A stretch of DNA of 64,000 nucleotides from positions 67,828,001-67,892,000 of the forward strand of contig OX597830.1 of NCBI GenBank assembly GCA_951406725.2. The letters run 5' to 3'. Positions within the stretch are counted from its first letter, which is position 1. Every line of letters starts with the position of its first letter. The position numbers and the translations under genes are program-made. Below the pieces are notes generated by a model. It saw only the letters and a program-made list of their open reading frames with translations, was not told where the DNA came from and ran no database searches. Below are positions 2,203 to 50,849 of this stretch, piece by piece. The DNA is from Octopus vulgaris (taxonomy: Eukaryota).

Positions 2203-3037
2203 TAAGCAGATAAACAGAAAATTCGTTCATAAATTTATCATTAGCAGAAGTGTTTATATCATTCAGTAGAAAAATAAAATTTATATAAAATGCCTCATAT
2301 GCATATCAACAGCTTGCTCAATGAATATTTATTATAAGTTTAAAAAGTGTTTGACTAGGAAAATCATTTACCTTTTACCTCAGTATATAAACTTGCACAG
2401 CACAACCACATCCTACGACTTCTCTAACAATCCTGAAGGGCAGTGCAACTGTGAGTGCGATAAGAAACATACTACTGCGTGCTTTTGGAAATTTGTTTTT
2501 AATAGGATACCAACGTTGGCGGTGGAATTTATCTTGAAGGTTTCACCAATGAATAGATCTTTCAATTGATGGAGGCTACAAAAATATTAAATATATTAAA
2601 CAACAAGATCATTTATCTTTAGCATCTGTTCTTTCCTTCCTTTCATTTTAGTCTCTATTTTTTAACTATGCATTAGGTGTATTGTATAACTTTCTCAGCC
2701 TGACAGATGTTTAAATTGGTGAAATAAAATTCTCTTATCATCATGTGGCTCTGTTTCTATCCGGAAGATTTGATTCATTCCAATCCCATGTCAAAACCAG
2801 TGTACCATGCTAAAAACTATAAATCAATAGAAAACAAATTCATGTGTACTTGTGTTAATATGGATTGGATTATCTCTTCCAGATAATTGTAGTTATACTT
2901 ATTTATTATAGTATTTCTGTTCAGTTATGTCTTCTCTGTATAATTTGTTATAGAATTTGAAACTCTGTGTTATTAATGTCAGATGCTGAAATCTCATCAT
3001 TCCTGCAAACATTCATATTATTTTCTTTTATTTTCAG

Positions 3038-3078
3038 ACATCTGATAAGAAATGGATAGAGAAAAACATTAAACTAAG
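3038..3078 (+). CDS. TRPM: TRPM-family channel, N-terminal exon (TSDKKWIEKNIKLR)
   Basis: Pyrimidine tract and ttttcAG acceptor, AG|GTAATT donor. The peptide resembles the conserved TRPM 'WIE..(F/I).KREC' start of MHR1. The exon is short and its link to the next exon is unresolved. Confidence 0.6.
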
Positions 3079-4630
3079 GTAATTCAAGAAATATGCCCCT
3101 AAATTTTATAATGTATAAGTACACATATATTAGGATTTCAGTTATGGTAATGTTGTAAATTGAAACATTTTTATCAGTTGAGATTCTTCCAGTAATTAGT
3201 ATACAAAAACATCGCTTAGAGATGTGGATATCTAAAAGCAATGGGCGGGAGAGGTAACTAAAAGAATCTCTTAATTGTTGATTTCCATATAAGTAATTTT
3301 TTCTTATGTGAAATTTGACTGGCGACTGTTGGTGCTGCCACCTACAGTTGCTTTCGGAATAAGAGAAGTTGAGAAAGAAAGTTTACTAAGAAATAGGGAG
3401 AGAGTAAGGTTTTCTATTTTCTTTACTTTTAACAGTGGATGAGAGATGCAGAAGGAGAGAGACTGAGTGATAGAATGAGGGAAAGTCTCCTACATGTTTA
3501 GGATTTCATTCCAGTAGTTTTTCAAAGATATTATTTTATTTCTCTTGTTAATTTCCCCCCTCCAGTGCTTGTTAGATTGTTCTTCATACAGACTTCATTA
3601 CCATTTCCTTTACAAACTACATGCACACCCCTCTGTGTTTCTCTCGGGTGCAAACGTGGGATCTCTTGTATTTCCACGCTGCTTATCACGTGAGGATGAC
3701 TTAGGATTAATTTCCAATATATTTCATCTCGCCATGGTACCTTTCCGTTTGTTTTGTGTGTAGCATTCAGAATTCAACCATCGTTCGAAACACACGTGGG
3801 AAATGTGACCGGTAACTGTTGTTGCTGCTACCTACAGATGATTTTGAGTAAGAGAGAGAGAGAGAGAAAGTGAGTGAGTTAGCTAGAAATAGAAGGGAGG
3901 GTGAGGTTTTCCTTTAAAGAGAAAGAACCACGCAGGGCTTATATTTTTTATTATTACAAGATTTTTTCTTACGAGGGAGAGAACATAAAATAATATTTCT
4001 ATATAATTCAATTTTCCACCTCATTTTTGAGTGTCCTAGTAGCTGGAAATAACATTATTTCGCTTTTCTTTGAGCATCCCAATACATCATAACTTAGTAT
4101 CATGAGGCCAGTTGGACTATGTTCATTTAAAACATTTAGGAATTATATACAGTCGATTTTCTTATTTCCGTTTTCTTTCTTTTTTCTTAAACGCTTAGCA
4201 CTTAAGAAAAGAAGTGAAGAGATAGAAGCAGAGAAATAAAATCTCAGGGGTTTTCTCATAATAATTTGGGAATATATTAAATTGTTACATTTCCAAATCC
4301 TACTCCCTTAGATCACCGGTATTATTTATGAAAAGCATAAAAATGGAGATCAACAGAAGACTAAAAAAAGTTAAATCTGATTGGTGTTTGATATAACAAT
4401 ATATCATTTCTGTTCAATTATTACTCTTAATACAGTAATGGCATAAATAATTTTAATAATCACACACATGTTTATGAGTGAAAGAGGTTAGGTTTTGTGA
4501 TGCCGATTTGTTTCTCTTTTATATAAAGAACAAATTAAAGTGAATTAAGCAAAAGTTAAAACTGGTTTGTGAACTCAGTGGGAAATCCACAGCATCTGCT
4601 AATAATGATCCTAATTATATTTATGGAGAG

Positions 4631-4665
<35 letters not shown>

Positions 4666-5209
4666 GAAATTTTACTTTTCTGGCTGGGGACTTGATCTAA
4701 TTTTATGTGAAGAAACTGAAATGAGTTCATCATAGATGATGAGTTATAACCACGACAACGTATATTGTTAGAAGTGTTTTCTTATATAATATTAAATATG
4801 AAGAAGTCTCCAAAGGTTAAATCGAACATGCATTTTGGAAGTTTGAGACGAAGATCAAAATGTCTAGCTTTATTGTTACTTAAAAATTCTATAAATGCCA
4901 GTTTCCCCTCTTTCCCAAGATGTTAGGGCGAAAGCAGTAATTAAAACATGAAATCCAAAATATGAGAAATCCTGGTCTTTGTGTTCCGCAGCAAATGTAA
5001 ATCATAGAAAGAAAATATATGGAAAATTTAAAAGAAAGTCAGTGTATTTAGCCAATTGGAAATGAAAAAGATGGCAAACATTGAAGCAAAAGACATTTTA
5101 TTGGAGAAAGATATCTTTTGCAATGAAAATGTGTTGCTGTGAAGATTTAATTTTGATGTAGGGACATGTCTCCTCCTCTTCCTCCTCCTCCTCCTCCTCC
5201 TCCTCCTCA

Positions 5210-5845
5210 TCATCATCATCATCATCACTGTTTAACGTCCATCCACCTTGCTGCTATGGGTTTGACGGTGTGACAGGAGCTGGCCATCCAAGAAGCTCTC
5301 CAGACTCCAATTGTCTGTTTTTACATGGTTTCTAGGGCTGGATGCCCTTCCTAACGCCAACCACTTTGCAGAGTGTGCTGGGTGCACTTTACGTGCCACC
5401 GGCACGGGTTCATTTTACATGGCACTAGAACCTGTAAATCACATGCCTGTGTATATGGATGACCGGGATATTACTTAGCGTGGTACGTCTTTTCAAGTAC
5501 AGCAGATCATCACAACTCCCGGTCCCTTGATATTTCCTCAGTGTAGCCCAGTGTCTGAAGATACTTTCTCACCATTTCGTCCCATCGCATCTTCCCCCGT
5601 GTATTCCATCCACAAGTTCTCTCCACAATTAGGGATCAGCTCTTCTTTATGCAACCGTCCTCATCCACACGCAACACATGACCAAACCAGCGCAGTCTCT
5701 TCTCTTGCTCACAACATCTGATGCCTCTTAAATCATATAGTTTTCCTCTTAAATCATATACACTCTGACATCCAGCGGAGCATTCTAGCTTCGTTTCTTT
5801 CAAGTGTTCGCAAGTCATCTGTTGTCATAGCTCATATTCCACCGC
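5210..5845 (-). mobile_element. RTE-clade LINE 3' fragment with (GAT)n tail
   Basis: Minus-strand CCEQEKRLRWFGHVLRVDEDGCIKK. The 3'UTR motif ctggatgcccttcctaacgccaacca is shared with copies at 27.4, 47.6 and 58.0 kb. Confidence 0.8.
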
Positions 5846-23572: not shown

Positions 23573-23746
23573 GGATCGTGGCCTGTATGGTATTACACAC
23601 GAACTAATTCTAAAAAGAAAAGTATGCATTGGATCCTAATCATTCACATTTTATCCTTGTTGATGATGGTACCAAAGACAATTTTGGAGAAATAATTGAA
23701 TTCAGAAAAAAGTTAGAACATACTATTTCACAAGAGAAAATCCCAG
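23573..23746 (+). CDS. TRPM: TRPM-family channel exon (GSWPVWY...YALDPNHSHFILVDDGTKDNFGEIIEFRKKLEHTISQEKIP) with apparent 1-bp frameshift
   Basis: ttctAG acceptor, G|GTAAGT donor, diagnostic LDPNHSHFILVDDGT motif. The 5' and 3' halves lie in different frames unless one A is added at 23612-23621. Confidence 0.88.
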
Positions 23747-27763: not shown

Positions 27764-27816
<53 letters not shown>

Positions 27817-27822
27817 AGAAAG

Positions 27823-27947
<125 letters not shown>

Positions 27948-28044
27948 TATAAAATATTATTAGAGACAAAACCACTATGTTGCAAAACAAAAAAGGAAAG
28001 ACTTAATCAATACATAAAATTTTAATAAATAGTCAAAAAAACCG

Positions 28045-28087
28045 CCACTACAATTGTTTCTTGTCTTGATCGACAATCTTCAGGTGG
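28045..28087 (-). ncRNA. Minimal type-I hammerhead ribozyme motif (mirror copy)
   Basis: Exact reverse complement of 28134-28176. Confidence 0.8.
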
Positions 28088-28133
28088 ACTTCCAATAAGT
28101 CAGTTTCAAATTTGAAACTGACTTATTGGAAGT

Positions 28134-28176
28134 CCACCTGAAGATTGTCGATCAAGACAAGAAACAATTGTAGTGG
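28134..28176 (+). ncRNA. Minimal type-I hammerhead ribozyme motif
   Basis: CCAC-CTGAAGA-TTGTC gatcaa GACAA-GAAA-CAATTG-TA-GTGG: stem I, CUGANGA core, 5-bp stem II, GAAA, palindromic stem III and a GUA cleavage triplet (cut after 28172). Confidence 0.8.
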
Positions 28177-28362
28177 CGGTTTTTTTGACTATTTATTAAA
28201 ATTTTATGTACTGATTAAGTCTTTCCTTTTTTGTTTTGCAAAATAGTGGTTTTGTCTCTAATAATATTTTATAATATTTTACTATAAAATTGGATTTATT
28301 CCCTAATATTTATTATTTTATACATATATATATATATATGCATATATATATATATACATATC

Positions 28363-28397
<35 letters not shown>

Positions 28398-28400
28398 TTT

Positions 28401-28537
28401 TTTATTATATAGAAGGAGCTTCTACAGGACTAGTACTGTTTCATTCAAGAGAAATCTTCAGGAAGCTCTGAGCTTCCTGAAGATTTCTCTTGAATGAAAC
28501 AGTACTAGTCCTGTAGAAGCTCCTTCTATATAATAAA
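28401..28537. mobile_element. Perfect 137-bp palindrome: second Penelope-like pseudo-LTR family
   Basis: 68-bp arms around a single T at 28469. The right arm continues unpaired to ~28606. TA flanks. Confidence 0.78.
28471..28521 (+). ncRNA. Type-I hammerhead ribozyme motif (mirror copy on - strand at 28417-28467)
   Basis: AGCTTC-CTGAAGA-tTTC tctt GAAt-GAAA-CAG tactagtc CTG-TA-GAAGCT: 6-bp stem I, weak stem II, GUA triplet (cut after 28515). Confidence 0.65.
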
Positions 28538-28601
28538 TTAATTTTACTCTGCTATGTATTGAGTACCTTACTTACTGTGGTTAACCCCGTATCAACCGGG
28601 A

Positions 28602-28645
<44 letters not shown>

Positions 28646-29640: not shown

Positions 29641-31117
29641 GGATCTCTGCTTCACAAATGACATGGATCTCATCCATAATGTGAAAGTGACACCGACACT
29701 ACTCTCGGATCACAACATGATAGAGCTGACCATGTACGGGCCAAAAGAGAGCACGGACATGCAGCCTACAAGAAACCCTCAGAATCTTTCCAGCTTGAAC
29801 TACCATTAGGCAAACTGGAAACAAATTGAGAAAGAGATCCTCAAACAAAACTGGCCTAAATGTCTCTCCTCGCCAGACATCGACGTGAAACTTCAACAAT
29901 TCATGTCTGTAATGCAAGCCATATGCTACAAATGTGTCCCAGAGAGAAAGGCCACTGTACACAAGAACAAAATCCCCAGAGAGAGGAAAATTTTAATGAG
30001 ACGGCGTACAAAATTTTCAAATCGCCTAAACAAACAGATTGAAAGCAGTGAAAAGTCCCGCCTAAAAATAAAACTGTTGCAAATCGAAAAATGTCTGCAA
30101 CTCTCCCATGAAAAAGAAAGAGCAGACAAAGAAGCCTGGGCTATAGACAACATAAAATCTAACCCCAGAGCTTTCTACAGGTATGCCAAAGAAACAGCTA
30201 CGGTGCACTGTAGAATAGGGCCACTCCTTGAAAAGGATGGCACACTTACAGGAAAACCAATGAGGGTAAGTGAAATACTGAATGAGCAATTCAAGAGTGT
30301 TTTCACTCCACCCCTTGGGCATCTCCAAATCACCAATCCAACTGACTTTTTTACCACTGCAGATATAAAATCAGAGGCGGCGACGATAGATTACATCGAT
30401 ATAAAGGAAGACGATGTAATCAAGGCTATAGATGAAATGAAAACAGACTCAGCTACTGGCCCCGATGGATTTCCGGCAATCCTCCTAAAAGCATGTAAGA
30501 GAGTCCTAGCAAGACCACTGCAGTTCCTCTTTCAGAGCTTCCTTGCAGCTGGCAAACTTCCAAGAAAACTGAAGGAAGGTAAAATATGCCCCATTCATAA
30601 AGGAGGTAGCAGAGCGGAAGCCAAGAACTACAGACCTATCTCTCTGACCTCGCACATCAGCAAGGTCATGGAACGAATAGGCAGAAGGAAGCTGATCACC
30701 TTCCTTGAAGAGAATGACTTGCTGCCCGACACCCAACATGGTTTCCGACCAGAAAGAAGCTGTTTAACTCAGCTCCTACAACACTATGACTGGGTGCTGA
30801 ATCGGCTGCTCAACCACTCATATGTGGAAGTCATATATCTCGACTTTGCAAAGGCCTTTGATAAAGTCGATCATGGAATGATATGTCACAAACTGCGTGA
30901 TCTCAACATAGTTGGAAAACTAGGAGAATGGCTTCATGACTTTCTGAAAGATAGAAGTCAGGTGGTAGCAGCCAATGGGGCCACTTCCATTAACACGCAA
31001 ATAGTGAGCGGTGTTCCGCAGGGCACTGTTCTGGGACCACTACTGTTCATAATGGCCCTCTCAGACATGCCCTCAGCCACGCAGAGAGCCACGATCACAA
31101 GTTATGCAGATGATACA
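29641..31117 (+). mobile_element. CR1-group LINE family 1, copy A (truncated at both 5' and 3' ends)
   Basis: Near identity to 44665-46141. RT motifs [21 protein letters not shown] and YADD, then an abrupt TA-rich run. Confidence 0.95.
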
Positions 31118-31195
31118 TGTATGCATATATATATGTATGCATATATATATATATATATATGTATACATATATATATATATATATATGTATACATA

Positions 31196-31232
<37 letters not shown>

Positions 31233-31238
31233 GTATAC

Positions 31239-31280
<42 letters not shown>

Positions 31281-31282
<2 letters not shown>

Positions 31283-31598
31283 TTTGATACTTTGATACTT
31301 TGATAGGTTTCGGCCATTATTGGCCCAGGCCATGTCTAACTTAATAGCACCACCTGGTGAAGTCTTTCAAGTCAGAATTTGGGCACTATGGCCCACTCAA
31401 GTAGTGAGTTATTGTTTACAGAGACATATCCGGGTGTAGGGGGTTTATCCGGGATTTCTTGAAGTAATCTGTCCAAAGACTTCTTGAACCCTATAGGGTC
31501 AGTTTCTATTTTAATGTGTTTTGGTGTAATGTTAAAGAGAGCGGGGCCAATTGAGGTGAAATAATTGTGCCGTATTGTTGTTATGAGATGAGAGTGCG
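31281..31598 (-). mobile_element. CR1-group LINE family 3, 3' fragment (copy B) with (TATCAAAG)n tail
   Basis: C-terminal peptide [12 protein letters not shown]...[16 protein letters not shown]...NSLLEW parallels family 1 [12 protein letters not shown]...[12 protein letters not shown]...NSLMHQ. The 3' hairpin motif is present. Confidence 0.85.
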
Positions 31599-31694
31599 AT
31601 ATATATATATATGTATACATATATATATATATATGTATAAATATATATGTATACATATATATATATATATATGTATACATATATACATATATAC

Positions 31695-31726
<32 letters not shown>

Positions 31727-31736
31727 GTATGTATAC

Positions 31737-31768
<32 letters not shown>

Positions 31769-31770
31769 GT

Positions 31771-31830
<60 letters not shown>

Positions 31831-31831
31831 C

Positions 31832-32316
<485 letters not shown>

Positions 32317-32343
32317 TATATGTACATATATATATATATATAC

Positions 32344-32526
<183 letters not shown>

Positions 32527-32547
32527 AATATATACATATATATATAT

Positions 32548-32589
<42 letters not shown>

Positions 32590-32724
32590 TTAATAAGGGT
32601 GAGAGAAGTAGATACTAATTTAATAGTATATCTATTCAACACCAAGTGGCCTAGTGGTCGAAACCTTTTGGATTAACTAGTGCTGGAGTGAGCCATATAG
32701 TGACCACTCTCTTATATTTATTTT

Positions 32725-32945
<221 letters not shown>

Positions 32946-32962
32946 AATACATATACATATAT

Positions 32963-34307
32963 ACCAGGAAGAAGCTGCTTAACTCAGCTCCTACAACACT
33001 ATGACTGGGCGCTGAAACGACTGCTCAACCACTCATATGTGGAAGTGATATATCTTGACTTTGCAAAGGCCTTTGATAAAGTCGATCATGGAATGATATG
33101 TCACAAACTGCGTGATCTTGGCACAGTACGAAAATTGGGAGAATGGCTTCATGACTTTCTGAAGAATAGAAGTCAGGTGGTAGTAGCCAATGGGGCCACT
33201 TCCATTAACACGCAAATAGTGTGCGGTTTTCCGCAGGGCACTGTTTTGGGACCACTACTGTTCATAATGGCCCTCTCAGACATGCCCTCAGCCACGCAGA
33301 GAGCCACGATCACAAGTTATGCAGATGATACAAAAGTTTCACAGGCAATACAGAACCCTGAAGATACTAATCACCTGCAATGTGAGCTGGACAAAATATA
33401 CAAGTGGGCTGAAAAGAATAGCATGCAGTTCAATGCCGAAAAGTTTCAAGCTTTATGCTATCAACATGCAAAACTAAATGCAATACCCAATGAATACACT
33501 GGACCTGGAGGGATTGCAATCCCAGAGGCATAATCAGTGCGTGACCTGGGTATTTACATGAGTGATGACGCAACCTTTCGTGTACATGTTAATAAATTGG
33601 CAATGAAATGTAGACGGCTGGCCGGATGGATTCTTAGAACCTTTAAAACAAGAGAGCAAGAAACCATGATGGTCCTCTGGAGGACACTTGTCCTAAGCCA
33701 CTTTGACTATTGCCCTCAGCTATGGTCACCATCCAGTGTCAAGTTGATCACAGAACTTGAGGCGATCCAACGTAGCTACACGAAGAAGATAGCCTCTGTG
33801 CAGAATATAAGCTACTGGGAAAGACTCAAGAGATTAAAACTCTATTCCTTGGAGCGTAGGCGAGAAAGATATGCCATAATATACATCTGGAAGTTCTTGG
33901 AAGGACTTGTCCCAAACTTTGGCATTGAGAGTTACACAAATGCCAGAACTGGGCACCACAACGTGGTGCCAAGGACTCTAAATATGCCATCAAGATGTAG
34001 GACAAGATACTGTGATAGCCTGGGTTTCAGAGGCCCTCAGCTCTTCAATATCCTCCCGAAGAACCTGAGGGACCTGCATGGGGTGGATGCAGATGTCTTT
34101 AAAGTAGGACTGGATCTCTTCCTATCAGGTGTCCCAGATGAACCAACTTCACGGCAGGAGGTGCAGCTGCATCGAACTCTCTCATGCACCAAATGGCAGT
34201 TGCTAAAAAGCATTCGTGAAGTAAAATCATGTAGCAACATCAAATGGCGGTGCCCCAGCATGGCCACAGCTTATGAGCTGAAACTAGATAAAATAAAAAA
34301 AACAAAA

Positions 34308-34317
<10 letters not shown>
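32963..34317 (+). mobile_element. CR1-group LINE family 1, copy C (5'-truncated)
   Basis: RT to 3' end, premature TAA at 33531, small deletion near 34165, A-rich tail. Confidence 0.95.
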
Positions 34318-34405
<88 letters not shown>

Positions 34406-34446
34406 TATATGTATATGTATGTATATATATATGTATATATATATAT

Positions 34447-38045
<3,599 letters not shown>

Positions 38046-38080
38046 ATATATATACATATATGTACAATATATATATATAC

Positions 38081-38253
<173 letters not shown>

Positions 38254-38266
38254 CATATATATATAT

Positions 38267-40753
<2,487 letters not shown>

Positions 40754-40759
40754 CACACA

Positions 40760-41805
<1,046 letters not shown>

Positions 41806-42245
41806 CCGGTTCCGGCAGGGAAAGTCGTGTATCGCCTTTGCTCTGCTTAAAAAAGGCAGAAAGTGTGCATAAATCGGTGAAATAATCTACTGAAAGTCCA
41901 AATTCAACTCATAAAGTCCACTACAACACTTCGGTTACAAATATATTAATCAAAAACGTAATATATTTTGCCTGAAGCCAAATACAGTAATAATTTTTCA
42001 TTTCGCCGAAAACGCACATGCTGGAAAAACTCACTGAAGTAACTTATCTCCTACAAGAAGGAAAAAGAAACATCTCCTGGAAAATAATTCCGTAAAACTC
42101 AAAAAATCCAGACCACATCGTTGGATTAAGTATCACATTCATCTTCTATTTCATATTTTGTTTATTATCCTATTTTATCCCCCTAACTTAAGCCTACATC
42201 TCCTTTTAAAGTTACGAACGCCATTTCTGTTTACATCTCTCCTCT

Positions 42246-43130
42246 TTCAGATACTCTATCCTCTAATTAGCCTTAAGATTAAATAACGTTTTTTACCCAC
42301 ACTCTAATATTGTTAATATATTTTCAGATACTCTATCCTCTAATTAGCCTTAAGATTAAATAACGTTTTTTACCCACACTCTAATATTGTTAATATATTT
42401 TCAGATACTCTATCTTCTAATTAGCCTTAAGATTAAATAACGTTTTTACCCACACTCTAATATTGTTAATATTTTTTCAGATACTCTATCTTCTAAGATT
42501 AAATAACGTTTTTACCCACACTTTAATATTATTGATATATTTTCAGATACTCTATCTTCTAATTAGCCTTAATATATTTTCAGATACTCTATCCTCTAAT
42601 TAGCCTTAAGATTAAATAACGTTTTTACCCACACACTAATATTGTTAATATTTTTTCAGATACTCTATCTTCTAAGATTAAATAACGTTTTTACCCACAC
42701 TTTAATATTATTGATATATTTTTCAGATACTCTATCTGCTAATTAGCCTTAAGATTAAATAACGTTTTTACCCACACTCTAATATTGTTAATATTTTTTC
42801 AGATACTCTATCTTCTAAGATTAAATAACGTTTTTACCCACACTTTAATATTATTGATATATTTTCAGATACTCTATCTTCTAATTAGCCTTAAGATTAA
42901 ATAACGTTTTTATCCACACTTTAATATTGTTAATATATTTTCAAATACTCTATCTTCTAATTAGCCTTCAGATTAAATAAAGCTTTTACCCACACTTTAA
43001 TATTGTTACTATATTTTCAGATACTCTATCTTCTAATAAGCCTCAAGATTAAATAACGTTTTTACCCACAAACTTTAATATTGTTAATATATTTTCAAAT
43101 ACTCTATCTTCTAATTAGCCTTAATATCTT
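42246..43130 (+). repeat. 13-unit tandem monomer array in LINE 5'UTR (~76-bp long units, ~66-bp short units, one ~37-bp unit)
   Basis: Unit ttcagatactctatc(t/c)tctaattagccttaagattaaataacgtttttacccacact(c/t)taatattgttaatata starts at ~42246, 42323, 42400, 42476, 42542, 42579, 42655, 42722, 42798, 42864, 42940, 43016 and 43094. Confidence 0.95.
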
Positions 43131-43185
43131 CTTGTCTTCTCTCGAACATATTTAGATAGATAAACAAATAGACAGATTATCCAGC

Positions 43186-44004
43186 ATGTCCAGAGCCTGG
43201 ATACCTGACGAACTAGAGTTATTCGAACGAGCCTGGAAATGCGCCGACGGCGATAGCCCTAGCGAGGTGATTGCGGCTGCGTTGAAGAACAACGGCTACA
43301 AGAGGACAGCGGCTCAGATGGAGCGAAAGAGACGGGAATTCGTGCGCTCATATGCGCTTATACGGTCGCACATTGGTGCACTTGATGCCATCTTTGAGAA
43401 CGAGCGGGACAAAGATGGCAAGAATGGAGACGATGAAAGAAGTCACCCCCACCTGGTGGACGCCCGGGAGGAGGTTTTGAGTGAGAAACCTGCCCGGGAA
43501 GTGAACCCAGGTGCGAGTTCTCCAACCGGCAGCAAGGGCCATGGAGACGGAGAACCCGGTGAAGAGGTAGAGGGAGGAGGAAGAACTAAAAGAAGGACTG
43601 GAAGAGCTAAAGGAAAAGCTCAAGCAGGACCAAAGGGTGAAACAACCAGGAATAGAAGTGGAACCGCAAAAGATGGAAGCAAACAGCGCACACGGGTGTG
43701 TAGGTTCTACCTGAGAGGTTCCTGCTGGCATGGAAAGGAAGGTGCAGGCTGCCGCTTTGCACATCGGGGACCCTGCCACAGAGACACGAGGCAGATGGAC
43801 AAACCATCAACACAAGGAAAAGGGATGGACCACGCACCACCTGCCCCAAAGCGGAGGTACGCAGATGTTGTGCGTGCCACAAACCGCCAACATGATGTTG
43901 TCGAAAGGGCAGCTGCTGAGCAACAATCTTTTTTGTGCATGGCACAAAAGATTGTACAGCAGCTGACCTGGCTTCATCAAACCCAAGCCCGCAGGTGGGA
44001 TTAA
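43186..44004 (+). CDS. LINE ORF1 (272 aa): N-terminal Myb/SANT(trihelix)-like domain, basic linker, CCCH zinc finger
   Basis: Open ATG-TAA frame. W..DELELF..AW...VIAAALKNNGYKRTAAQMERK, and C-x7-C-x8-C-x3-H (CRFYLRGSCWHGKEGAGCRFAH). Confidence 0.8.
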   Translation: MSRAWIPDELELFERAWKCADGDSPSEVIAAALKNNGYKRTAAQMERKRREFVRSYALIRSHIGALDAIFENERDKDGKNGDDERSHPHLVDAREEVLSEKPAREVNPGASSPTGSKGHGDGEPGEEVEGGGRTKRRTGRAKGKAQAGPKGETTRNRSGTAKDGSKQRTRVCRFYLRGSCWHGKEGAGCRFAHRGPCHRDTRQMDKPSTQGKGMDHAPPAPKRRYADVVRATNRQHDVVERAAAEQQSFLCMAQKIVQQLTWLHQTQARRWD

Positions 44005-44042
44005 CCACTATATACAAGACCACCACAGCAAACAGACCCAGG

Positions 44043-47038
44043 ATGGACACCGCCGGCAACAACGTACACCTCACCTCGATGCTCCTACTGAACATCAGAG
44101 GGCTGAAAACACTCAGTAACAGGACAAAAATCCCGTTCCTGAGAGACTTTGTTGCATGCAATCAAGCCTTATGCATAGCACTTACGGAAACGCACCTGAA
44201 ACCGGACATAGCAGATGCGGAGTTACACATACCACAGTATGCTGTACTACGGACCGACAGAAAGAAAGGAGTCATGAAGGTGTTGCTATGTACATCCGTG
44301 AGGACCTCACACCCCAGGTCCTCTTGTCATACTCAAACTCGGTGTGTGACACACTAATTGTTCATATTAGGCAACTTGATGTAGTTGTGTGTGCTACATA
44401 TCGCCCTCTAGATGCCCCAAGCCATGTGGGCAAGTTTGAAGAATGCCTTATAAAAATAGAAGAAGTTCTAACCACATTAGAACAAGACATAAGTGTACTT
44501 CTTATGAGAAACTTCAATCTGCCCAATGTCAGATGGCCCGAGGGCCTTTCTCTCCCAGGAATGACAAGATGTGAACGAGGACAGGCGAGGTCCCTCCTGA
44601 ACCTCATCAACACCCTGTACATGGAGCAGGTAATACTCCAACCAACCAGGACAGGTAACACACTGGATCTCTGCTTCACAAATGACATGGATCTCATCCA
44701 TAATGTGAAAGTGACACCGACACTACTCTCGGATCACAACATGATAGAGCTGACCATGTACGGGCCAAAAGAGAGCACGGACATGCAGCCTACAAGAAAC
44801 CCTCAGAATCTTTCCAGCTTGAACTACCATAAGGCAAACTGGAAACAAATTGAGAAAGAGATCCTCAAACAAAACTGGCCTAAATGTCTCTCCTTGCCAG
44901 ACATCGACGTGAAACTTCAACAATTCATGTCTGTAATGCAAGCCATATGCTACAAATGTGTCCCAGAGAGAAAGGCCACTGTACACAAGAACAAAATCCC
45001 CAGAGAGAGGAAAATTTTAATGAGACGGCGTACAAAAATTTCAAATCGCCTAAACAAACAGATTGAAAGCAGTGAAAAGTCCCGCCTAAAAATAAAACTG
45101 TTGCAAATCGAAAAATGTCTGCAACTCTCCCATGAAAAAGAAAGAGCAGACAAAGAAGCCTGGGCTATAGACAACATAAAATCTAACCCCAGAGCTTTCT
45201 ACAGGTATGCCAAAGAAACAGCTACGGTGCACTGTAGAATAGGGCCACTCCTTGAAAAGGATGGCACACTTACAGGAAAACCAATGAGGGTAAGTGAAAT
45301 ACTGAATGAGCAATGAAAGAGTGTTTTCACTCCACCCCTTGGGCATCTCCAAATCACCAATCCAACTGACTTTTTTACCACTGCAGATATAGAATCAGAG
45401 GCGGCGACGATAGATTACATCAATATAAAGGAGAACGATGTAATCAAGGCTATAGATGAAATGAAAACAGACTCAGCTACTGGCCCCGATGGATTCCCGG
45501 CAATCCTCCTAAAAGCATGTAAGAGAGTCCTAGCAAGACCACTGCAGTTCCTCTTTCAGAGCTTCCTTGCAGCTGGCAAACTTCCAAGAAAACTGAAGGA
45601 AGGTAAAATATGCCCCATTCATAAAGGAGGTAGCAGAGCGGACGCCAAGAACTACAGACGTATCTCTCTCACCTCACACATCAGCAAGGTCATGGAACGA
45701 ATAGTCAGAAGGAAGCTGATCACCTTCCTTGAAGAGAATGACTTGCTGCCCGACACCCAACATGGTTTCCGACCAGGGAGAAGCTGTTTAACTCAGCTCC
45801 TACAACACTATGACTAGGTGCTGAAACGGCTGCTCAACCACTCAAATGTGGAAGTGATATATCTCGACTTTGCAAAGGCCTTTGATAAAGTCGATCATGG
45901 AATGATATGTCACATACTGCGTGATCTCAACATAGTTGGAAAACTGGGAGAATGGCTTCATGACTTTTTGAAAGATAGAAGTCAGGTGGTAGTAGCCAAT
46001 GGGGCCACTTCCATTAACACGCAAATAGTGAGCGGTGTTCCGCACGGCACTGTTCTGGGACCACTACTGTTCATAATGGCCCTCTCAGACATGCCCTCAG
46101 CCACGCAGAGAGCCACGATCACAAGTTATGCAGATGATACAAAAGTTTCACAGGCAATACAGAACCCCGAGGACACTAAACACCTGCAATGTGAGCTGGA
46201 CAAAATATACAAGTGGGCTGAAAAGAATAGCATGCAGTTCAATGCTGAAAAGTTTCAAGCTTTACACTATCAGCATGCAAAACTAAATGCAATACCCAAT
46301 GAATACACTGGACCCGGAGGAATAGCAATCCCAGAGGCACAATCAGTGCGTGACCTAGGTATTTACATGAGTGATGACGCGACCTTTCGTGTACATGTTA
46401 ATAAATTGGCAATGAAATGTAGACGCCTGGCCGGATGGATCCTCAGAACCTTTAGAACAAGAGAACAAGAAACCATGATGGTCCTCTGGAGGACACTTGT
46501 CCTAAGCCACTTTGACTACTGCTCTCAGTTATGGTCACCATCAAGTATCAAGTTGATCACAGAGCTCGAGGCGATCCAACGTAGCTACACGAAGAAGATA
46601 GCCTCTATGCAGAATGTAAGCTACTGGGAAAGACTCAAGAGATTAAAACTATATTCCCTGGAGCGTAGGCGGGAAAGATATGCCATAATATACATCTGGA
46701 AGATCCTGGAGGGACGTGTCCTAAACTTTGGCATCGAGAGTTACGCAAATGCCAGATATGGGCGCCACTGCGTGGAGCCTAGGACTCCAGACTTACCATC
46801 AAGATGTAGGACAAGATTCTGTGATAGCCTGGGCTTCCGAGGCCCACAGCTCTTCAATATCCTCCCGAAGAACCTGAGAGACCTGCATGGGGTGGATGCA
46901 GATGTCTTTAAAATGAAACTGAATCTCTTCCTGTCAGGTGTCCCAGATGAACCAACTTCAGGGCAGGAGGTGCAGATGAGGGCAGCTGCATCGAACTCTC
47001 TCATGCACCAAATGGCTGTTGCTAAAAAGCTTTCGTGA
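44043..47038 (+). pseudogene. LINE ORF2 (APE endonuclease + reverse transcriptase), disrupted
   Basis: LNIRGL, ALTETHL, LDLCF and SDH (APE); DFAKAFD and YADD (RT). One frameshift near 44262 and stops at 45314 (TGA) and 45815 (TAG), where other copies have TTC and TGG. Confidence 0.92.
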
Positions 47039-47140
47039 AGTAAAACCAAGTAGCAACACCAAATGGCGGTGCCCCAGCATGGCCACAGCTCATAAGCTGA
47101 AACTAGAATCAATCAATCAATCAATCAATCATATATACAC

Positions 47141-49118: not shown

Positions 49119-49534
49119 TTCATCATCATGGCATTGATTTATGTTTTCTAAAACCTGAACATATACTAAACTTTATATTCTAGTCAAGTCATATTTTATA
49201 CAATTTAGACCTAAATGAGGTTATACTTAATGTGAGATGTATTTTAGAAGCAGTTATATTTTATTATTAAGATATAATTAAAAAGATATACATTTTACTT
49301 TAAATCATTTATATATTTTTACCTCATTCAGGTATGTTTTGTACTTTAACCAGGTATGCATTACACCAAGATCTGGTTATACCTTCTACTTTAATCCAGG
49401 TATATTTAAAAATTTAATCATGTATATGTTTTATACACTAACTAGATATGTTTTACCTTAATCAGGCATATTTCATAATTTAATTAGATATATATTTTTT
49501 CTTAATCAATTTATATTTTCTGCTGTAATTTTAG

Positions 49535-49644
49535 AGACAGAAGTCAAGATTCCAGCTGTTGCAGTAATGGTTGGAGGTGGACCTGGAACTCTGAAGTCAG
49601 TGCATGATTCAATATCACGCAACATCCCAGTTGTAATAGTAAAG
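49535..49644 (+). CDS. TRPM: TRPM-family channel exon (ETEVKIPAVAVMVGGGPGTLKSVHDSISRNIPVVIVK)
   Basis: tttAG acceptor, AAG|GTCAGT donor, phase 1 to 0, matching the exon ending at 23746. TRPM 'IP.V..V..GGP.T...PVV.V' motif. Confidence 0.92.
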
Positions 49645-50849
49645 GTCAGTAAATAGACTATTATGTAAATAAGGTTACTGAGAGTTTATTCAGTTCATAA
49701 TGTTTACATATCTGAAGAAGCTTGTGGTTAAGAAAACTAAAAGGAAGGACTATATGAGTATTTTGTTGGTGCAGAATTTTCCATAAATATTTTATTTAAT
49801 GATTTTCCGGTTTTTGGTTTCCTGGTCAACTGCTTAAATCTTATGACTGTCTCTATTGGATGAATGACTTTATATGTACTTAATTCAGAGTATTTTATAA
49901 CAAATATTCTTTTAAAAATCTGTCTTTCAACCAAAAATAGTAATTTATTTGCCATTGCCAGTGGTCAACCTCTTCTGTTTTCCTTCTGTTGCTACTTTAT
50001 ATGAACCCCCTCGTACATTAATGGTCCTTGAAATTACACCACTCGCTAATTTCCATGTGTAATGAAATGACCAGCAAAGTGTTGCTTCTTCTTCACCTTA
50101 ATTATACATCATTCATCTCTTTGCATTTCTACCTTACAAAACACTAACCCACCTGTAATTGGATTTCATTTCTCATAATTTTGTTGTTCATTAGATGTGC
50201 TCCTTGGCCTTTGACCCATCACTTTAATTTTTTGCACCACCTAATTCATCTTCTGTGTACTACCTGTAACTCTTCCTAGTCTCGAATTAACATAATTGTA
50301 GGCCTACCACTATTTACAATCTTTCTTCTCTGATTTCTCTGTTCTTCCTTTGTCTCCTTATGGCTCAGAAAAGTGCAGTCTTTCTGGCCTTCCTTATACA
50401 CGATGTGCCAAACTATTTCTGCCTCCACCACAACATATTACAGAAATCTCTCCTTTGTAACAGAAACACCTCATGCCTCTGCCTCCACCAGTTGTCTCAT
50501 CCACATTTATGCATGTACTGAAATGAGACCTTGTTACTTTTTAGTCAATTAAGAAACTACCTTTTTCTTTTCTTTCTACTTGTAATGAATTAACCAATTA
50601 GCTGTTTTCTTAATTTTCATTATTTACCCATTTATGTTTGTATTAATGGTGCTTATAATGACAATGCTTGTACTACACTTACTTCCAGTAGAGACAGTCA
50701 TTTGAACATGAATGAATGATAATATATTAATGCGAGTGGAACTGATACATGTCTGCTGGTAAACGCTCAATGAAACCTTCTTTTCAAATGTTGAATGTCA
50801 TCCCTCCTTTCCAAGTTCCATGTCATGTCCCTTTCCACACCTTATGTAG

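Follow-up and report, generated by a model that had tools for sequence, protein, structure and literature searches.

A hammerhead palindrome in an octopus TRPM intron as a probable head-to-head copy of a spliced Penelope-like leader

Two hammerhead palindromes in a host intron

The window considered here is a stretch of 64,000 nucleotides from Octopus vulgaris (GCA_951406725.2, contig OX597830.1, positions 67,828,001 to 67,892,000 of the forward strand), and positions refer to it unless a locus is named. Exons of a TRPM SLOG-domain gene are distributed over 8117-59837 (+), and the homologous proteins contain several internal repeats of the domain set. One host exon is identical to a predicted Octopus vulgaris protein. 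The palindromes lie in a large intron of this gene (Table 1), in agreement with the host pre-mRNA setting considered in a preliminary description of the first one. The same intron harbors nested, partly broken LINE copies (endonuclease and reverse transcriptase (RT)) among long (TA)n runs at 29800-47100, and, at 42245-43114, a complex tandem repeat (66-77 bp) that lies immediately upstream of the 5′ end of a LINE.

Table 1. Features of the palindromic locus and of the parent element
Feature	Position	Strand	Description
Host exons flanking intron	23573-23745 and 49534-49650	+	
Host intron	23746-49533	+	about 25.8 kb, TRPM SLOG-domain gene
(TA)n target, left	27770-27951	.	
Short arm	27948-28110	-	antisense copy of spliced leader: about 14-16 nt of exon 1, then exon 2
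Short arm, 3′ limit			first of two fixed 3′ ends, about exon-2 position 150
Mirror hammerhead motif	28045-28087	-	
Centre	28109-28112	.	self-complementary AATT of exon 1, common to both arms
Tail arm	28111-28317	+	sense copy of spliced leader, to second fixed 3′ end (about exon-2 position 240)
Palindromic part of right arm	28111-28273		pairs with 27948-28110
Exon 1/exon 2 junction	28124-28125	+	site of the parent intron; mirror copy 28097|28096
Minimal type-I hammerhead motif	28134-28176	+	predicted cut after 28172; palindromic stem III
Unpaired tail	28274-28317	+	39-bp internal deletion relative to parent, between two short repeats
(TA)n target, right	28319-28397	.	
Second hammerhead palindrome	28401-28607	.	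arms 28401-28537, centre 28469, tail to about 28607
Second-palindrome hammerheads	28473-28519 and 28419-28465	+ and -	
Parent element (L111)	G000:C3:63974000-63981600		unit of 5,998 bp, 838-aa ORF at about 2712-5228
Parent leader intron	L111:608-2425		1,818 nt, GT-AG

The first palindrome is, as had been described, a spacerless inverted repeat of 326 bp; it is centred at 28110|28111. Its arms are complementary at 161 of 163 positions. The segment 27948-28273 is predicted to fold as a 159-bp hairpin, in keeping with the masking hairpin of about 160 bp proposed earlier. The symmetry applies to the paired arms but not to the insertion, since the right arm continues beyond the paired region to about 28317. 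A perfect spacerless centre beside long (TA)n runs could point to a fold-back artefact of sequencing or assembly. However, the arms differ at two positions, the tail is asymmetric, and an anatomy governed by the same rules recurs in a second family and at dozens of loci whose centres differ, so that an artefact is next to impossible. This second family is represented by another palindrome, 130 bp downstream. It belongs to a different Penelope-like element (PLE) and shows the same anatomy of a short arm and a tail arm.

The hammerhead motif comprises the CUGANGA, GAAA and NUH core elements, helices I and II and a palindromic stem III. Its presence on both strands is confirmed at the level of the letters, but helix II is closed by a U-A pair in place of G10.1-C11.1, a G-C pair called highly conserved by Cervera and de la Peña (PMC4209133, available part). 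In computed co-folds of two copies, the double hammerhead is the minimum-energy structure (-22.0 kcal/mol versus -13.0 for two monomers), which fits the dimer type attributed to this stem III. The monomer ribozyme fold is weak, with a computed probability of 0.02. Rfam models do not score the motif: at the gathering threshold no match occurs in the 64-kb window, and the 63 matches at E<=10 include no hammerhead family, only hairpin-type microRNA models below their cut-offs.

Conservation of the core among genomic copies, a point raised in the preliminary description, is observed. Of 134 arms, 131 have an intact core, and pairing is maintained by the three shared variants that fall within the motif (a loop change, U-A to U-G and A-U to G-U). 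Changes affect 2 of 1,607 core positions versus 72 of 14,665, a comparison in which paired arms are non-independent and part of the core is touched by the anchor pattern; as a sign of purifying selection it is therefore suggestive only.

A Penelope-like parent and a spliced template

A 30-nt piece of the arm has 2,118 exact matches in the genome (control 0). Arm copies are 97-99% identical on many contigs, and with dozens of dispersed copies reaching 99%, the window insertion is very young. It is one among many hundreds of young (TA)n insertions of the same family; all of 100 arms are inserted in (TA)n, the target recognized previously.

Full parent elements were reached elsewhere in the Octopus genome through a rare upstream extension of the arm family. 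The Penelope-like origin proposed for the palindrome is thereby upheld: the arms match the leader of an element encoding RT and GIY-YIG endonuclease, and family members attached to such an ORF, for which a search had been recommended, do occur. In the parent, exon 1 and the 1,818-nt intron are followed by the hammerhead and then by the two fixed end points, which precede the ATG of the ORF by 130 and 45 nt. It carries partial tandems (pseudo-LTR), an inverted 5′-truncated copy and a tail, and its repeat contains both the hammerhead and the spliceosomal intron. The intron also contains 80-90% identical repeats of the sequence upstream of exon 1, and its length differs by subfamily from about 1.15 to 2.4 kb, according to donor/acceptor spacings.

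The predicted fold of the 838-aa product best matches TERT (E 5e-10); a PDB sequence profile search returned nothing significant. A YIG-type motif and PF26215 are found in homologues of the ORF, while a Pfam scan of parent ORFs and homologues gave no family at cut-off, so the GIY-YIG assignment is based on motifs. An alignment with 13 homologues displays the motifs of the Hydra clade as characterized in the available part of PMC8557442: an RWK-like motif (R-x-R/K-W-K-like), DKT, a CxCx5C linker, C-terminal CxxC and CxH, and no CCHH inside GIY-YIG. (TA)n insertion and the hammerhead are further shared traits. In contrast, Hydra families are generally under 3 kb and the parent measures 5,998 bp, including an asparagine-rich insert of about 110 aa. 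On the described motifs we provisionally assign the parent to the Hydra clade of PLEs with RT and GIY-YIG domains, this length difference notwithstanding.

The asparagine-rich insert (residues about 492-601) is predicted with low confidence, lies between RT and endonuclease and is absent from most homologues. An asparagine-rich insert has been reported in rotifer Penelope ORFs (PMC3846280, available part). At another locus (L122:1-987), a copy of the first family has as its neighbor a distinct RT ORF, whose AMG motif is canonical and PLE-like.

The relation between arm and parent is that between a spliced leader and its gene. In the parent, the exon-1 part of the arm abuts a GTAAGT donor, and the remainder starts after a TAG acceptor, 1,818 nt further on; in the window the two parts are joined exactly, with a mirror copy of the join. 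Genome-wide exact counts are 314 for the spliced junction and 296 for the unspliced acceptor. A subfamily carries a GT to GA change in the donor (8 of 30 loci), and we predicted before the search that it would be spliced at the next GT, 4 nt on. This shifted junction was found 68 times (control 0). All 31 shifted arms, from the 25 loci examined, share an exon-2 haplotype typical of GA-donor parents: two of the three such parents have it, one site sets the third apart, and all nine GT-donor parents lack it. A third junction, using the +4 donor in GT-donor parents, is represented by three arms; retrocopies L302, L332 and L356 record this alternative donor. Furthermore, each of the four main haplotypes is found spliced and unspliced.

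The exact and shifted junctions and the shared haplotypes argue that spliced sense-strand RNA served as template many times over. On these genomic grounds, we conclude that the arms were copied from such RNA and do not descend from a one-off DNA deletion. In the main texts of openly available papers that were searched, we found no prior account of intronless leader copies.

A template of the opposite polarity has been proposed for head-to-head repeats and intron retention in PLEs, through self-priming on an antisense transcript (PMC3846280, available part). Such a template accounts in principle for both features, and bidirectional promoter motifs were noted in rotifer elements. However, in hundreds of octopus head-to-head copies the intron is missing exactly between GT-AG sites of the sense strand, which is impossible from an antisense transcript unless it was recopied from spliced RNA. 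For the octopus copies we find this proposal barely tenable.

Paired arms and the origin of the palindrome

The arms end in a stereotyped manner. Their 3′ ends fall on one of two sites followed by TA in 98 of 100 cases, at about exon-2 position 150 or 240. For 90 of the 100, an inverted partner lies no more than 400 nt away, and in 86 of these cases a short arm is joined to a tail arm; single arms end at either site. Likewise, 56 of 70 short loci are head-to-head and 53 are short-plus-tail pairs. Within these 53 pairs the 5′ ends lie within 15 nt of each other in 36, the tail arm is the 5′-shorter in 10 and the short arm in 7. At two loci (L215 and L217) the arms share almost no sequence, so that neither can have been copied from the other.

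Partners nevertheless resemble each other closely. Exact-match patterns, which capture 678 of the about 2,100 arms and thus provide a partial sample, gave on contigs 1-4 19 spliced-spliced pairs, 27 unspliced-unspliced pairs and no mixed pair, compared with about 22 mixed pairs expected under independence. Divergence amounts to 0.5% within pairs versus 1.9% between random arms, and at ten variable columns the variant occurs on both arms in 29 instances and on one arm only in 10. The lack of mixed pairs and the low divergence point to one template per pair.

The junction between the arms varies. Forty-six loci display 22 different centre sequences, three of which recur (9, 7 and 5 loci). The AATT of the window, probably a microhomology join, is the commonest (9 of 46). 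Recurrent centres, including this one, occur on two or three haplotypes. Variation of the centres and their recurrence on several haplotypes indicate that the palindrome is built at insertion and is not moved as a unit.

These observations bear on the mobile, orientation-independent ribozyme unit favored by the preliminary description, and more generally on an intronless non-autonomous master (SINE/retrozyme-like or MITE-like palindrome) that would move whole. The abundance of the family and the recurrence of some centres would suit a master, and six spliced arms with upstream sequence could be transcribed. This reading is nevertheless largely refuted, and we rate it as very unlikely: there are 22 centres at 46 loci, the same centre stands on different haplotypes, three or more distinct splice junctions each follow the parents to which they belong, and the haplotypes are common to intron-bearing copies. 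In addition, the ends are asymmetric and the internal sequence is variable, in contrast to MITEs, and the short loci examined are head-to-head pairs or singles, with no head-to-tail tandem arrays of the type formed by non-LTR retrozymes. The proposed unit thus gives way to arms that are copies of a spliced leader.

We consider it very probable, from the structure of the genomic copies, that the palindrome is a head-to-head cDNA pair of a spliced PLE 5′ leader, produced in one insertion by two primings and joined at the 5′ ends. In the proposed pathway, the (TA)n site would be cut and both cut ends would prime reverse transcription on one sense RNA. RT would start inside the RNA at the two fixed end points and run towards its 5′ end; the joining of the two cDNAs at their 5′ ends would create the palindrome.

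In L1 twin priming, a single RNA is reverse transcribed from both target ends, and the two cDNAs are then united as an inversion through microhomology. The octopus primings differ by their use of fixed internal sites and of overlapping sequence, which results in a palindrome. An in vitro precedent for two internal RT start sites is provided by the anole PLE Poseidon PAc (Frangieh et al. 2024, PMC11167929). According to the available part of that study, two internal sites define the tail, as in octopus, both target strands are cut and extended, and cleavage is not needed for insertion. The PAc sites are inside the ORF and no reads end at the cut site, whereas the octopus sites are in the 5′ UTR and a cut-site class is present.

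The main alternative for the mirror arm retains the spliced sense template and invokes fold-back of a single cDNA, with trimming by the endonuclease at the short site. Variants and splice state common to both arms, tiny self-complementary sequences at the centres and the 36 pairs with nearly coincident 5′ ends are compatible with it. The window copy, a perfect hairpin whose arms end at the same place, may by itself have formed in this way. However, fold-back of one cDNA cannot give the ten pairs with a 5′-shorter tail arm or the L215 and L217 arrangements, which argue for two primings; single arms ending at either site and the two start sites used on either strand in vitro (PMC11167929, available part) also speak against it. 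We therefore judge fold-back to be improbable for the family.

Lastly, the hairpin could be kept for the host, as an editing substrate, a small-RNA source or a masked ribozyme in a TRPM-family intron. Its intronic position and its predicted duplex of 159 bp are in favor of this possibility. Its arms are very young, however, with 99% identity to dozens of dispersed copies, and insertion mechanics account fully for its anatomy. A host role is accordingly highly improbable; sparing of the pre-mRNA and roles for ADAR or Dicer need not be invoked.

RNA 5′ ends, intron retention and the ribozyme

The 5′ ends of spliced arms respect a limit. Among the first 100 listed matches to the spliced junction, 98 arms contain at most 23 nt of exon 1, and 13 contain exactly 23. 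This ceiling falls on the A of TCACTTC, which we liken to the initiator consensus. For arms with the shifted donor the ceiling is 27 nt instead of 23, which is the same A, and 28 of 31 arms stay within it. Genome-wide, only six spliced arms at five loci hold at least 33 nt of exon 1; they extend for 47-300 nt and do not come near the ORF. Together with the three shifted arms that pass the ceiling, they indicate that some read-through RNA is spliced or that starts are heterogeneous. By comparison, unspliced arms have scattered 5′ ends. Of 38 intact donors on contigs 1-4, 35 continue upstream of the start, and the intron is still present at 29 of the 30 loci that have upstream sequence. A cap-derived extra G was sought at the 5′ limit and could not be told from microhomology.

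From these ends we infer that transcription starts 23 nt before the donor. Since priming sits in the 5′ UTR, a spliced mRNA would yield only leader stubs: RT would fall off after about 170-260 nt and leave a dead copy. ORF-bearing copies would come from read-through RNA that reaches the downstream repeat, in which the intron copy would rarely be removed. Intron retention would then be a by-product of where priming starts, and the sister copies of the window palindrome suggest in this way why full-length Penelope elements keep their introns.

Penelope in Drosophila virilis offers a parallel. According to the available part of Schostak et al. 2008 (PMC2377424), its TATA-less start lies shortly before the 5′-UTR intron of the pseudo-LTR, and most transcripts are spliced while genomic elements bear the intron. 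That study explains retention by selection against intronless elements; the priming geometry proposed for octopus needs no selection.

The ribozyme can be approached through arms matched on the piece downstream of it, regardless of their 5′ end. A sample of 100 such arms contains about 39 spliced, 35 unspliced, 5 ending at exon-2 positions 3-9 and 21 starting at 49-68. The predicted cut corresponds to exon-2 48|49, and one of the 21 arms in the last class starts exactly there; most start 6-12 nt past the cut, inside a T run. Two alignments begin at exon-2 positions 14-48, and both are internal deletions counted among the spliced arms.

The 21 cut-class arms are distributed over 18 loci, and four have no partner. 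At 3 of 14 cut-class loci the partner extends across the cut site, versus 41 of 53 for junction-bearing arms (Fisher p = 2e-4); three loci pair a cut-site arm with an intact arm. This bias indicates a property of the template, most simply self-cleavage followed by trimming of the ends by a few bases, which is also seen at the start site. A cleaved RNA used as template would thus give rise to a third class of copies starting just past the cut. Alternatively, RT stalling at the ribozyme fold or microhomology at the T run could explain these ends. The position of the ends in the T run, a helix II without G-C and the monomer probability of 0.02 count against cleavage. On balance, the chances that self-cleavage in vivo produced the cut-site class are about equal either way, and the sister copies hint that the self-cutting ribozyme may work in cells. 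The window copy itself derives from uncut RNA, and its ribozyme is a passenger.

Once spliced, the end of exon 1 also pairs with exon 2 in a perfect hairpin of 5 bp (28120-28134). It occupies the first base of helix I and is absent in unspliced RNA; it could tune the ribozyme.

Several elements of this picture have been described before. Endonuclease-bearing PLEs are known to form complex insertions with an inverted 5′-truncated copy and a tail (Craig et al. 2021, PMC8557442; Arkhipova et al. 2013, PMC3846280). In the available parts of these papers, such insertions resemble those of octopus in the head-to-head copy, the tail at one end, (TA)n, the hammerhead and the 5′-UTR intron. The octopus tail is longer (about 90 nt versus 30-40) and the octopus intron measures 1.8 kb. 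A large share of octopus insertions are intronless leader stubs with a fixed 5′ limit, a type that these parts do not describe. Metazoan PLE hammerheads share the short palindromic stem III and dimer type (Cervera and de la Peña 2014, PMC4209133). The available part of that study also reports opposite-strand hammerhead pairs 100-700 bp apart and a D. virilis intron ending at helix I; it differs in the G-C base of helix II, for which octopus has U-A, and contains no spliced-leader origin for the opposite-strand pairs.

Taken by itself, the window palindrome is an ordinary by-product and belongs to a known class. Earlier work had described inverted copies, tails, (TA)n targets, minimal hammerheads and opposite-strand pairs; the exact exon-exon junctions in the arms appear to be new. 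They matter because intron retention, head-to-head repeats and hammerhead cutting are stated open questions in the available parts of PMC8557442, PMC3846280 and PMC4209133, the first of which calls the significance unknown. A young, abundant family that preserves junctions, a start ceiling and a cut-site class would offer an answer from the genome itself: a sense template, two primings and a length set by the RNA 5′ end. The hairpin stubs, dead by-products through which the octopus genome gains roughly a thousand long perfect duplexes, mimic MITEs and microRNA precursors and call for caution among annotators.

A wider reading goes beyond the window, and we hold it tentatively, with slightly more doubt than conviction. 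In this scheme the genome would record three RNA species: the capped leader after splicing, read-through RNA that is unspliced, and RNA cut by the ribozyme. Two primings on one sense RNA would be the work of a dimeric RT, and every insertion would be an inverted pair sized by the RNA 5′ end. The scheme would settle intron retention and head-to-head repeats, give a first sign of germ-line cutting by minimal hammerheads and hold for PLEs generally.

The second family has 1,979 exact matches to its hammerhead, which has a weak helix II (U-U at the base) and a longer stem III. RT and endonuclease frames are found at L190 and L191, where a frameshift interrupts the ORF in each of the two tandem copies examined. 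Exon 1 of this family was sought in nine long loci and not found. Its 5′ ends pile up at or just inside an AG that precedes helix I, 39 of 53 arms lying no more than 6 nt from it; the pile-up may mark either a start site (TATAAA at -29) or a splice acceptor (CTAAT at -23). One short palindrome of this family, at L190 (reverse strand, 3290-3480), lies within the (TA)n of the 3′ region of its own parent.
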